Assembly: GCA_020062525.1 (NCBI GenBank) | Contig: JAGUWE010000121.1 | Location: 1 to 26,583, forward strand | Length of the DNA: 26,583 nucleotides | Direction of reading: 5' to 3' | From: Patescibacteria group bacterium | Lineage (GTDB): Bacteria; Patescibacteriota; Patescibacteriia; JAACEG01; JAGUWE01 | Shown: positions 20,854 through 23,947 of the stretch, piece by piece | How positions within the stretch are numbered: position 1 is the stretch's first letter | Layout of the letters: the number at the start of each line of letters is the position of its first letter | Made by a program: the position numbers and the translations under genes | Notes under the pieces: model-generated | What the model saw: only the letters and a program-made list of their open reading frames with translations | Databases searched by the model: none | Told to the model about the DNA's origin: nothing

Positions 20854-20886
20854 TGCGGGATCGTCTGCCTGCGCAAGCAGGTCTAA
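20854..20886 (+). repeat. Duplicated 5' fragment of tRNA-Gln interrupted by an 18-nt mini-hairpin
   Basis: TGCGGGATCGTCT (20854-20866) equals the tRNA 5' end. Removing 20867-20884 extends the identity to 15 nt. The insert contains CCTGC-GCAA-GCAGG and GTCT is repeated. Confidence 0.7.
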
Positions 20887-20945
20887 CTTGCCCCGCCAAA
20901 TTTAATATTGAATTTTTCTTAAATTCAAAAATTTCTTTTCAGGGC

Positions 20946-21016
20946 TGCGGGATCGTCTAATGGCAGGACAACGGATTCTGGCTCCGTTAATCTAGGTTCG
21001 AATCCTGGTCCCGCAG
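20946..21016 (+). tRNA. tRNA-Gln (anticodon CTG), CCA not encoded
   Basis: Acceptor TGCGGGA/TCCCGCA, D arm, anticodon stem ACGGA/TCCGT with loop TTCTGGC, T loop TTCGAAT, discriminator G. Confidence 0.95.
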
Positions 21017-21405
21017 CTGTGGAAAGAAAATAAATTTGGCGGGGTGAAGTCGTCAATTATGGTTCCGCCCGTTCGCCTGCCCGTGTGAGCGGAGGGATTT
21101 TAGGGGATTAAATTGCGGAAGTATTATTTAACCGGGGAGAAATTACGATTAACGATTGCGGAAGTAAAAAAATAGGTAAAATATTGCGCGATTTCTTGAG
21201 CGATTATTGCGCGGCAAAGGTCCGGCTTCCGCGTATGTGGCCAGATAAAAAAAGATCGCCAAAGACGTTACTTGCCCTTCCAAAGTCCCACAAAACGGGA
21301 CGAAGGATGGGGCGTTGGCATTTGCTCGTCCTGAATTTACTTGTGGTGAACAGAGTTGAGTCCATCGAAGGGAGGATTTAAGGAAATAAATTTAATTTAA
21401 AAATT

Positions 21406-21996
21406 ATGCCAAAAAAGAAAATTAAATCACAAATGGAGTTGTTGCTCGCTTACTTTAAGAAAAATGCGGGTAGAAACATTAAACATCCCGAAATTGTTGA
21501 TTGGGCTACTAATGAGTTTAAGAAAATGACGGGCAAGGTTTTTAGAGACCCAGATCGCGGCATCAGAAAATTACACCAAGATGGTTATTTAATTAAAGTT
21601 GCCAAAGGCATTTACAGGTATGACCACGGCTTCGTAAAAAAACGAGATTTAGAAGATTTTAGCCCGCGAGTCAAAGAGCAGATTTTTAAGAGAGACGGTT
21701 ATAAGTGCGTGATGTGTGGTAGGGGGCGAGCTGATGGAGTAGAGATTCACGCAGACCATATTAAACCAAAAGATTTAGGCGGAGAAGCAGCCTCAGAAAA
21801 TGGCCAGACACTTTGCGCGCAACATAACTTTTTGAAAAAGAACTTGAAACAAACCGAAACGGGTAAGAAATACTTTATCAGGTTATATCAACTTGCCAAA
21901 AAAGAAGGCAATAAACAATTGATCGATTTTTGCTCCCAAATTTTAGAGATCTTTGAGAGGAATAATGTTAACGGACATATAAAGTGGGAGAAATAA
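21406..21996 (+). CDS. HNH endonuclease, probable restriction endonuclease partner of the adjacent methyltransferase
   Basis: IFKRDGYKCVMCG...IHADHIKPKDLGG...ENGQTLCAQHN (Zn-bound beta-beta-alpha-Me fold); N-terminal wHTH-like segment; convergent with a DNA MTase. Confidence 0.82.
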   Translation: MPKKKIKSQMELLLAYFKKNAGRNIKHPEIVDWATNEFKKMTGKVFRDPDRGIRKLHQDGYLIKVAKGIYRYDHGFVKKRDLEDFSPRVKEQIFKRDGYKCVMCGRGRADGVEIHADHIKPKDLGGEAASENGQTLCAQHNFLKKNLKQTETGKKYFIRLYQLAKKEGNKQLIDFCSQILEIFERNNVNGHIKWEK

Positions 21997-22008
21997 ATCT
22001 TTTTGTTT

Positions 22009-23370
22009 TTAGAGTAATTTTCCCTGATTTAATTCTTTATCAACTCTATCTTTGGCAACTTTGCAATACTGCGGTGAAATATCGATGTGGATGAATTGTC
22101 TGCCTGTTTTTGCGGCGACTGCGGCCACCGTTCCCGTTCCGCCGAACATATCAAGTACAGTATTGTCTTTGTAAGAATAAAACTTAATGAGCCTATAAAT
22201 TAAGTCCTCTGGGAACGGCGCTGGATGGCCTTTTCTCTGTGTTTCTGGCCAGATTTGCCAAAAGCCATCAGAAAACTTCATAAACTCCTCTTTGGAGATG
22301 TCCGCGTTTTTAGGATCGCCATCAAGACGATCTTGGTCCTTTGAAAAAATCATCACATACTCCCACGACGGAACAATGTGAGGATTGGCTGGACTTTTAA
22401 AACTGCCCCATGCCGTCCTTTTCAACATGGTTTGTTTATACCAGATAATTTCGGTCCTGAATTTCATGCCAAGTTTTCGGAATTGATTCGCAAAGTCGTG
22501 ATGTATGGGGACGAAATCTTTAATCCCTGTGGGTGCGATATTTAATGCAAAACGGCCGCCCGGCACCAGAACTCTTTTAGTTTCGTGCCAGACCTTATTG
22601 AGCCAATTAAGATAATCCTGATAGTTCATTTTATCGTTGTGGTTATCATAATTTTTGCCGACATTGTAAGGAGGGGAGGTTATTGCCAAATGTATAGAAT
22701 TATCAGGGAGGGTTTTTATAATTTCTAAAACATCGCCGCAAAAGATTTTACCCGGTTCTACTTTTGGTTTTTCGAGAGTATGAATGACGCTTACTACTTT
22801 GCCCTGGATATCAACTGCTCTTACAAAAATTGGCTTAAGAGTTGGATTTGCTGGTTGTAGCCTGAATCCGCGTTTTTCTCTGTAGATTTTTTTAAGGGTT
22901 GTTTCGTTGCCATTTATTAAAGCTACAACATTATCTCCATTTTCTGCTGTTTGCTGTCGTCTAATAATAACAGTGTCACCATCAAAAATGCCCTCGTCTA
23001 TCATACTGCTCCCATTAACTTTGAGGGCAAAATGTTCACCGCTTTTTGTTAAAAAATTTTTAGAAACAGTTATACTTTCTGGTATTGGATACGCTTCAAG
23101 CGGTTCGCCCGCAGTAATAGTGCCCACGATAGGAATTTTTACCAGATCAAATTTTTTATTATCAACCAATTCAATACTTCTCGCACCATAACCGTTTTTT
23201 AAAATAAATCCTTTTTCAATTAATTCTTCTATGTGTTCGGAAATTGTGGAAAGTGCTTTAAGTCGCAAATGCTTTTTAATCTCCTCAAAAGTAGGGGATA
23301 TACCACGCTTTTGTATATACTTTTTGATGTAGTCGTATATTTGCTTTTGACGCTTTGTAAGTGTAGCCAT
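22009..23370 (-). CDS. lexA: LexA repressor (aa 1-about 198) fused to a beta-class N4-C/N6-A DNA methyltransferase (aa about 208-453)
   Basis: LexA HTH (LTKRQ..IYDYI...SPTFEEI), Ala87-Gly88 cleavage site, Ser122 (GSSM), Lys160 (TLK). MTase motif IV SPPY (232-235), HPAPFP, motif I DMFGGTG (407-413). No stop or ATG at the junction. Confidence 0.92.
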   Translation of the reverse strand: MATLTKRQKQIYDYIKKYIQKRGISPTFEEIKKHLRLKALSTISEHIEELIEKGFILKNGYGARSIELVDNKKFDLVKIPIVGTITAGEPLEAYPIPESITVSKNFLTKSGEHFALKVNGSSMIDEGIFDGDTVIIRRQQTAENGDNVVALINGNETTLKKIYREKRGFRLQPANPTLKPIFVRAVDIQGKVVSVIHTLEKPKVEPGKIFCGDVLEIIKTLPDNSIHLAITSPPYNVGKNYDNHNDKMNYQDYLNWLNKVWHETKRVLVPGGRFALNIAPTGIKDFVPIHHDFANQFRKLGMKFRTEIIWYKQTMLKRTAWGSFKSPANPHIVPSWEYVMIFSKDQDRLDGDPKNADISKEEFMKFSDGFWQIWPETQRKGHPAPFPEDLIYRLIKFYSYKDNTVLDMFGGTGTVAAVAAKTGRQFIHIDISPQYCKVAKDRVDKELNQGKLL

Positions 23371-23405
23371 AATGTTGACAAGTTTTACTTATTTATTATA
23401 CTTAT

Positions 23406-23434
23406 ATTATACCCGAAGATTTCCCGAAGGTCAA
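23406..23434 (-). promoter_or_regulatory. Promoter of lexA-MTase with a putative LexA operator in the spacer
   Basis: Minus strand TTGACC (23434-23429), 17 nt, TATAAT (23411-23406); the spacer contains TTCGG-GAAATC-TTCGG (23428-23413). Confidence 0.8.
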
Positions 23435-23441
23435 AAGTAAG

Positions 23442-23450
23442 TTATCCACA
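23442..23450 (+). promoter_or_regulatory. DnaA box
   Basis: Exact TTATCCACA; single copy. Confidence 0.45.
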
Positions 23451-23481
23451 GTTTTAAAAAATAGGCACGAAATTTGGCGGC

Positions 23482-23509
23482 GGCGGGGAAAATTAACTCC
23501 GCCTTTTTT
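23482..23509 (+). terminator. Intrinsic terminator
   Basis: GGCGGGG-aaaattaa-CTCCGCC (one G-U pair) followed by T6. Confidence 0.6.
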
Positions 23510-23597
23510 ATATTAAACTTAGTGATTGCATAGACCCCTTTTGATGAGTTAGAAACTCTATGCTTCAGCATATCCCTTCAGGATATTTATGTTGCTC

Positions 23598-23696
23598 TTG
23601 TCATTCCGCACTTGATGCGGAATCCAGGGATAAACCGTACCAACTCTGGATTCCTGCTCCCCGATTTCTCGAGGACAAGTTTCGCAGGAATGACAA
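23598..23696. repeat. Full-length REP/RPE-like palindromic element
   Basis: 10-bp terminal IR TTGTCATTCC/GGAATGACAA; internal ATTCCGCA-cttga-TGCGGAAT, GAATCCAG/CTGGATTC, TTCCTGC/GCAGGAA. Confidence 0.8.
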
Positions 23697-23947
23697 AAGG
23701 GAGAAGCTAAAATCAAAAAATCTCATTGAACAACCTATGGACTTCCAGTCCATAGAGGTTTATAAACATTCCTGATTGCTCAGAAGAAATACCTTGACCG
23801 ACAGAAAAATTTGAAGAAGTTATAAAAAATTTTAGGAACAATTTAAAAATTATTTACAAAAAATTATTTGCTATTACAAATAGCATATGATATGCTATTT
23901 TATATTGTTCTTGAACAATAAATCCTAAAAAACATAAGGAGGTTTCA

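Follow-up and report, generated by a model that had tools for sequence, protein, structure and literature searches.

Hosts of restriction-modification (RM) systems die unless methylation stays ahead of restriction. What, then, is the function of a gene that joins a complete LexA repressor to a DNA methyltransferase and faces a candidate nuclease gene? Such a gene lies in a stretch of 26,583 nucleotides from a Patescibacteria group bacterium (GenBank assembly GCA_020062525.1, contig JAGUWE010000121.1, positions 1 to 26,583), which we analysed as a whole and refer to as the window. We favour, with a probability of about 0.6 for all its parts taken together, the explanation that the methyltransferase and the predicted HNH nuclease form a two-gene Type II RM module, and that the fused LexA is an RM-dedicated regulator whose self-cleavage would act as a switch. 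The fusion gene and its parts are located as follows.

22009-23370, minus strand: lexA-methyltransferase fusion gene, 453 amino acids, identified from its open reading frame, Pfam and NCBIfam domain matches and homologues.
22780-23370, minus strand: LexA part, residues 1-197, with a winged helix-turn-helix (HTH; 1-57) and an S24 autopeptidase and dimerisation domain (80-193).
23107-23112, minus strand: codons of the Ala87-Gly88 scissile bond, assigned from conservation among 30 fused LexAs.
23005-23007, minus strand: codon of the nucleophile Ser122 (in GSSM), kept in at least 90% of fused LexAs.
22891-22893, minus strand: codon of the general base Lys160 (in TLKK), invariant in fused LexAs.
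22756-22779, minus strand: short linker, residues 198-205; in other fusions the linker is charged and of variable length.
22012-22755, minus strand: beta-class N4/N6 DNA methyltransferase domain, residues 206-453, with SPPY at 22666-22677 and FGGTG at 22132-22146.

Within the 453-residue frame, Pfam recognises LexA_DNA_bind (PF01726) at residues 1-57, Peptidase_S24 (PF00717) at 80-193 and N6_N4_Mtase (PF01555) at 226-440. The match to the NCBIfam lexA equivalog TIGR00498 reaches 181 bits (cut-off 110.95), and that to PF01555 reaches 158 bits and spans positions 1-220 of a profile of 221. SPPY (motif IV, residues 232-235) precedes FGGTG (motif I, residues 409-413), which is the order of the beta class. 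An earlier reading of the window from its letters alone, hereafter the original prediction, had described one 453-amino-acid frame made of LexA and a beta-class methyltransferase, and both the frame and the domain matches bear this out; Ala87-Gly88, Ser122, Lys160, SPPY, FGGTG and the linker LEKPKVEPG (199-207) all lie where it had placed them. It had also described the junction as free of internal ATG codons, and methionine is indeed absent between residue 190 and about 247.

Among 5.8 billion proteins searched, more than 120 full-length homologues have all three domains, at 64-83% identity; their sources in the candidate phyla radiation (CPR) include Azam-, Zambryski-, Staskawicz-, Levy-, Roizman-, Gottesman- and Shapirobacteria. 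In 10 loci from species-representative genomes, inspected for a stop codon or frameshift at the junction, the LexA-methyltransferase reading frame continues unbroken. The recurrence of the same architecture and these uninterrupted frames mean that the junction is not an assembly artefact. As had been surmised, such fusions pass largely unremarked in CPR annotation: NCBI mostly labels them, where they are named, 'transcriptional repressor LexA'. Neither LexA-methyltransferase fusions nor LexA-controlled RM turned up as the subject of a paper in full-text literature searches.

The gene that converges on the fusion encodes the candidate nuclease.

21406-21996, plus strand: candidate restriction endonuclease, 196 amino acids, with an N-terminal winged helix, an HNH motif (CxxC...DH...N...CxxHN) and a C-terminal helical hairpin.
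21997-22008: gap of 12 nucleotides between the two convergent stop codons, where a consensus scan found no terminator-like hairpin.

The HNH protein matches Pfam PF01844 at residues 101-139, and its catalytic and zinc-binding residues C101, C104, D117, H118, N132, C137 and N141 are invariant among 22 homologues. The AlphaFold model (pLDDT 84) contains an N-terminal winged helix, an HNH core and a helical hairpin. A sequence search of the PDB with this protein gave zero matches, and Foldseek comparison of the model with the PDB gave partial matches only, to winged-helix domains and to the HNH domains of McrA, TagI and Gme.

What ties this protein to the methyltransferase is synteny. Of 12 same-type fused CPR loci, 8 have a homologue of the HNH gene (58-67% identity) immediately next to the methyltransferase, and homologues from three diverged subgroups adjoin at least 16 unfused methyltransferases, in either orientation, in DPANN archaea, Chloroflexi and Planctomycetes. 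At the three same-type fused loci without HNH, a convergent Type II nuclease of the BsaWI family (PF18643) occupies its position. The fusion proteins of a Taylorbacteria locus (L041) and an Azambacteria locus (L043) are 91% identical, and the DNA similarity of the two loci stops at the methyltransferase stop codon; the HNH gene follows in the former (L041:5353-5940) and the gene of a BsaWI-like enzyme in the latter (L043:5330-6205). Two unrelated nucleases beside near-identical methyltransferases thus have the look of alternative restriction partners of one specificity, and the swap may mean that a CCGG-related site is what the methyltransferase protects. More broadly, the downstream neighbours of 25 fused genes, convergent in 20 cases, include members of the HNH, BsaWI, TaqI, ScaI, NgoFVII_C and endonuclease VII (EndoVII) families. 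PADLOC assigned the methyltransferase part to MTase_II (239 bits) and the HNH protein, weakly, to REase_II (26 bits). The RM pair of the original prediction is therefore matched by the shared synteny in bacteria and archaea and by the BsaWI-family replacement, and the search for CPR fusions with N6_N4 methyltransferases that it had proposed yielded both the homologues and the nuclease neighbours described here.

The methyltransferase part itself (residues 208-453) is 70-88% identical to stand-alone enzymes of DPANN archaea and Dehalococcoidia (Chloroflexi); with the stand-alone enzymes of Thermoplasmata and Verrucomicrobia the identity is 60-65%. These relatives indicate transfer of the methyltransferase between domains of life. 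Closest to it in the PDB are TTHA0409 and N4-cytosine enzymes, the nearest entry being the uncharacterised putative methylase 2zie, followed by the named N4-methylcytosine (m4C) enzymes 8s9m and 8s9n. The SPPY motif and these solved relatives point to an m4C product, without proof, and the enzyme is probably N4-cytosine specific.

Is the LexA part a housekeeping LexA that happens to carry an enzyme? We compared LexA proteins across 401 Patescibacteria species genomes, one of which (G154) is unpublished and carries no particular claim. Most genomes encode a stand-alone LexA of about 200 amino acids; LexA lies within frames of 450-650 amino acids in about two dozen, and the exact fusion of the window occurs in only one other genome. 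With the fused form in only about 23 of the 401 genomes (about 6%), the idea that fusion is the usual form of Patescibacteria LexA was rejected. All of the 30 fused proteins contain both LexA domains, and their C-terminal partners are N6_N4_Mtase (21), Dam-like D12 (6) and C5 cytosine methylase (5); a PF02384 partner is also present in fragments of the protein collection.

In a maximum-likelihood tree of the LexA parts, a single branch (support 100/99) splits the 30 fused from 51 stand-alone proteins, and the stand-alone, or housekeeping, clade tracks taxonomy whereas the fused proteins do not. When the tree was enlarged, 40 short unfused relatives (about 200 amino acids; 55-66% identity for the most similar) fell on the fused side, interleaved with the fused forms, and the 51 housekeeping LexAs remained one clade (split support 99). 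The window LexA groups with the housekeeping clade in neither tree; both trees are unrooted, and a single origin of the RM-linked lineage cannot be read from them. Seven of the unfused relatives were examined in context, and six of these lie directly upstream of RM genes, which are the following.

Two N6_Mtase/Eco57I enzymes, one with a convergent DraIII-family nuclease.
One N6_N4 methyltransferase.
One C5 methyltransferase with Vsr.
One NmeDI-like nuclease.
One DpnI-like nuclease.

At the last of these loci (L170:3501-4886), the nuclease is of a methyl-dependent type and a methyltransferase is absent nearby. A housekeeping LexA is additionally kept in 14-16 of the 23 fusion-bearing genomes. 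Taken together, the lineage split, the RM neighbours and the retained housekeeping LexA argue for an RM-dedicated LexA lineage, whether fused or separate, and suggest that the RM systems linked to it are tied to the cell's DNA-damage alarm.

The region upstream of the fusion gene contains three elements relevant to its control.

23406-23434, minus strand: fusion-gene promoter, with TTGACC, a 17-nucleotide spacer and TATAAT; 11 of 12 consensus positions.
23410-23429, minus strand: putative LexA operator CTTCGGGAAATCTTCGGGTA, a direct repeat with an 11-bp period that fills the spacer between -35 and -10 and scores 20.3 bits against a position weight matrix (PWM).
23442-23450, plus strand: perfect DnaA-box-like 9-mer TTATCCACA / TGTGGATAA, 7 nucleotides upstream of the -35 element.

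A set of 48 lexA promoters underlies the PWM. When a match at 9 or more of 12 seed positions is required, 34 of the 51 stand-alone lexA promoters and 14 of the 30 fused ones have TTCGG-N6-TTCGGTA between -35 and -10. It is also found at unfused RM-linked lexA genes, and further fused promoters contain a variant, TTCTA-N6-TTCTA. This comparison of about 80 promoters supports the direct repeat as a putative LexA operator, and the alphaproteobacterial LexA motif GTTC-N7-GTTC has the same 11-bp period (PMC8565304). Together with the position of six of seven unfused relatives upstream of RM genes, a direct-repeat operator in the promoter agrees with the original prediction that LexA here takes the role of a C-protein-like controller. 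The DnaA-box-like 9-mer, searched with at most one mismatch in the 120 nucleotides upstream, precedes 23 of 31 fused genes as against 11 of 51 housekeeping lexA genes (chance, about 2% per promoter); loci other than the window with it upstream of lexA include L035, L036, L039, L041, L073, L165 and L170. It may couple expression to DnaA or to the replication state.

A second promoter-like site (TTGACA, 16-nucleotide spacer, TATACT) lies at 23375-23402 on the plus strand, back-to-back with the fusion promoter and pointing away from the gene. It reads through the operator and then meets a terminator-like hairpin at 23482-23503 (plus strand). Many relatives, fused as well as unfused, have a TTGAC on the opposite strand immediately before the ATG, and the site may give rise to a divergent LexA-controlled transcript.

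How far would control by this LexA extend? The PWM scan of the 789-kb assembly gave three sites of at least 20 bits, namely the fusion gene's own promoter, a site within a coding region (C142) and a site without promoter layout (C85), and it gave no operator site at recA. The original prediction had the uncleaved methyltransferase tethered to SOS operators generally; this part of it is not supported, with the gene's own promoter as the sole strong promoter-placed site, and the scan favours a putative private autoregulatory loop over genome-wide tethering. However, the check for other lexA genes found the fusion to be the only LexA in the genome, and as such it may double as the cell's SOS repressor. 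Two weak S24 matches elsewhere, considered as further LexAs, were rejected, as both are signal peptidases. The fusion might accordingly be conceived as the general SOS repressor, with a methyltransferase attached to the resident lexA and the enzyme held at SOS operators across the genome. Six other fusion-bearing genomes, one of them 100% complete, likewise have the fusion as their only LexA, and the operator type is that of housekeeping lexA promoters. Against this stand the position of the LexA domain in the RM-linked lineage outside the housekeeping clade, the lack of any further strong promoter-placed operator in the genome, recA included, and the separate housekeeping LexA in two thirds of the fusion-bearing genomes; the assembly is moreover 91% complete, and a second lexA was possibly missed. 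We regard a general SOS repressor of this kind as improbable.

The scanned genome also contains repeats of another type. Quadruple direct repeats of the form TTCGTA-N1-2-TTCGTA-N4-5-TTCGTA-N1-2-TTCGTA occupy at least 14 intergenic sites on G000 contigs outside the window (for example C27:309-340, C53:1855-1885, C62:10320-10350, C76:2876-2908, C95:1281-1312 and C143:5491-5522). They often form divergent pairs and precede, by 5-20 nucleotides, probable RNA genes and housekeeping genes resembling rplP, fusA, rpsK and murG. Outside these arrays, which look like a lineage-specific promoter or operator element, TTCGTA is under-represented in the genome.

We then considered whether the LexA part is likely to be cleaved. 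A87, G120, M123 and K160 are invariant among the 30 fused LexAs, of which at least 90% also retain G88 and S122; the autocleavage residues of the original prediction are thus conserved, and recA is present in the genome. A simpler account would make the LexA part a DNA-binding, dimerising autorepressor of the methylase gene only, similar to the SsoII-type methylases discussed below, with no SOS wiring and no physiological role for RecA cleavage. Autoregulation alone explains the promoter layout, the strong operator is confined to the gene's own promoter, and one fused relative, a 511-amino-acid protein with a D12-type partner (L154:501-2033), has lost the nucleophile through a Ser to Asn change (GDNM) and is probably a non-cleavable variant. 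The Ala-Gly, Ser and Lys residues are nevertheless conserved in 29 of 30 fused LexAs over three methyltransferase families, a pattern difficult to account for unless cleavage is under selection, and the presence of recA also speaks against this account. It is conceivable, but we consider it unlikely.

Architecture, residue conservation, synteny, lineage separation and operator conservation are observations; how the RM-dedicated switch would bind DNA, be cleaved and be induced, and what this would do to the cell, we infer as follows. A dimer of the LexA-methyltransferase would bind TTCGG-N6-TTCGG in its own promoter spacer and repress its own gene, so that methylase output would be high on entry into a naive cell and low later. 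DNA breaks or single-stranded DNA, including those from nuclease cuts in under-methylated host DNA, would activate RecA, and activated RecA would trigger self-cleavage at Ala87-Gly88. The DNA-binding head would be lost, with the S24 domain still joined to the methyltransferase; the promoter would open, the S24-methyltransferase product would accumulate, and the increased methylase output would restore protection, in effect a built-in restriction-alleviation loop. Where the HNH gene is co-directional and downstream, as in L035 and L073, LexA would control both genes. In the window, the convergent layout without a terminator would allow antisense read-through into the HNH gene, which is a speculation on our part. 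A wider proposal is that the Patescibacteria LexA lineage is a general RecA-sensitive controller of RM, fused to at least three (probably four) methyltransferase families or encoded just upstream of RM genes, such that damage by the nuclease would raise methylation through activated RecA and the DnaA-box-like site would add an input from the replication state. We put this forward tentatively, as a possibility about which we remain rather doubtful.

Several points weigh against the dedicated, switchable RM module. The S24-methyltransferase fragment could be degraded after cleavage rather than released as an active enzyme, and the fusion is, as noted, the only LexA found in the genome. There is no avoidance of CCGG-type sites in the genome (CCGG and WCCGGW are undepleted; TCGA and CTAG are depleted), although this pattern of palindrome depletion says nothing on the specificity of the module. 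In fold comparison, the HNH protein has its best multi-domain matches in the modification-dependent McrA and TagI, though these are weak (E 0.012, TM 0.29). Finally, in L073 (L073:2412-4419) the gene of an HNH protein 66% identical to that of the window follows, in the same direction, the gene of a LexA fusion with another N6_N4 methyltransferase, which shares only 36% identity with the window enzyme; such a pairing is awkward for an HNH specificity strictly tied to one methyltransferase.

The fold matches and the L073 pairing, along with the frequent mobility of HNH genes, would also suit a methyltransferase that is an orphan epigenetic enzyme, with an unrelated selfish or modification-dependent HNH nuclease adjacent by chance. 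Chance adjacency is difficult to reconcile with its retention in at least 24 loci of bacteria and archaea across three diverged HNH subgroups, with the presence, beside a 91%-identical methyltransferase, of a nuclease from a classical Type II family in place of HNH, or with the nucleases beside most other fused genes, and we judge it highly improbable. The co-occurrence of the HNH gene with this methyltransferase family, on which the original prediction had made its RM pair depend, is thus found in fused and unfused loci alike, and the two-gene RM module remains our preferred reading.

The convergent layout of the module, the 12-nucleotide spacing of the stops and the upstream tRNA-Gln all agree with the original prediction.

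20946-21017, plus strand: tRNA-Gln (CTG), left neighbour of the module, ending 388 nucleotides upstream of the HNH start.

Rfam recognised only the tRNA in the window, and the long spacers flanking the module contain no RNA family. Integration of the module at tRNA-Gln was considered, but the repeats flanking the module are short and ambiguous only, and the GC (guanine-cytosine) content is unremarkable. The first 13 nucleotides of tRNA-Gln are repeated 92 nucleotides upstream (repeat positions in the window are 20854-20866, 20891-20904, 21031-21044 and 23469-23488); CCCCGCCAAATTTA and its complement bracket the tRNA gene, and the related AAATTTGGCGGCGGCGGGG lies just past the fusion promoter. 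These repeats could be insertion scars at both ends of the RM module. At 23590-23710 lies a palindromic repeat element (arms 23595-23607 and 23687-23699), in which a spurious open reading frame reads '...WIPAPRFLEDKFRRNDK...'; the element resembles a REP-like repeat that is widespread among environmental genomes.

If our reading is correct, a methylase joined to a self-cleaving damage sensor would be a different solution to the RM balance problem, one where the signal of damage would itself restore the balance. A mobile defence module would have taken over LexA as a regulator of its own, in organisms that have few regulators and very small genomes. General RecA-sensitive control by LexA, if true, would represent a new regulatory class of RM and a built-in alarm for self-restriction. 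CPR proteins labelled 'transcriptional repressor LexA' would comprise two functionally different groups, which matters for the reconstruction of SOS regulons there.

Among the known solutions to the RM balance are C-proteins, methylases that bear an HTH and antisense RNAs; Type I systems use proteolytic restriction alleviation. We know of no device, among SsoII-type methylases, C-proteins and S24 repressors, that unites a complete self-cleaving LexA with an RM methylase. The autoregulatory Type II methyltransferases with an N-terminal HTH region (M.SsoII/M.Ecl18kI, M.EcoRII, M.MspI and M.ScrFIA) resemble the fusion in carrying a DNA-binding module at the methyltransferase N terminus, and an operator in the methylase promoter would allow self-repression here as well. 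The module of the fusion, in contrast, is a complete LexA of about 200 amino acids with the S24 autopeptidase, the scissile bond and the Ser-Lys dyad, hence a possible damage-triggered off switch; its fusion partners come from three or more unrelated methyltransferase families, and it can also be encoded separately, by a gene upstream. RM systems regulated by C-proteins, such as PvuII, BamHI and Esp1396I, likewise contain a dedicated transcription factor with an operator in its own promoter, which times the expression of methylase and nuclease, as we infer for the present case. C-proteins are Xre-type HTH dimers that act on palindromic C-boxes and have no proteolytic switch, whereas the controller here is of LexA type, has a putative direct-repeat operator and is usually fused to the methyltransferase, and is thus a functional analogue only.

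The fused LexA shares with canonical LexA (TIGR00498) the full domain set, the cleavage site, the Ser-Lys dyad, a score above the equivalog cut-off and a putative operator in its own promoter, but it is separate from the housekeeping Patescibacteria lineage, carries a C-terminal methyltransferase and has, in this genome, no detected regulon beyond its own promoter. In this respect it resembles the S24-family repressors of mobile elements, lambda CI and SetR of SXT, as a predicted self-cleaving, RecA-sensitive repressor that would serve one horizontally moving gene set rather than the host SOS regulon. Unlike lambda CI and SetR, however, the element that it would control is a two-gene RM module and not a prophage or an integrative and conjugative element, and the repressor forms one covalent chain with the enzyme that it would control.

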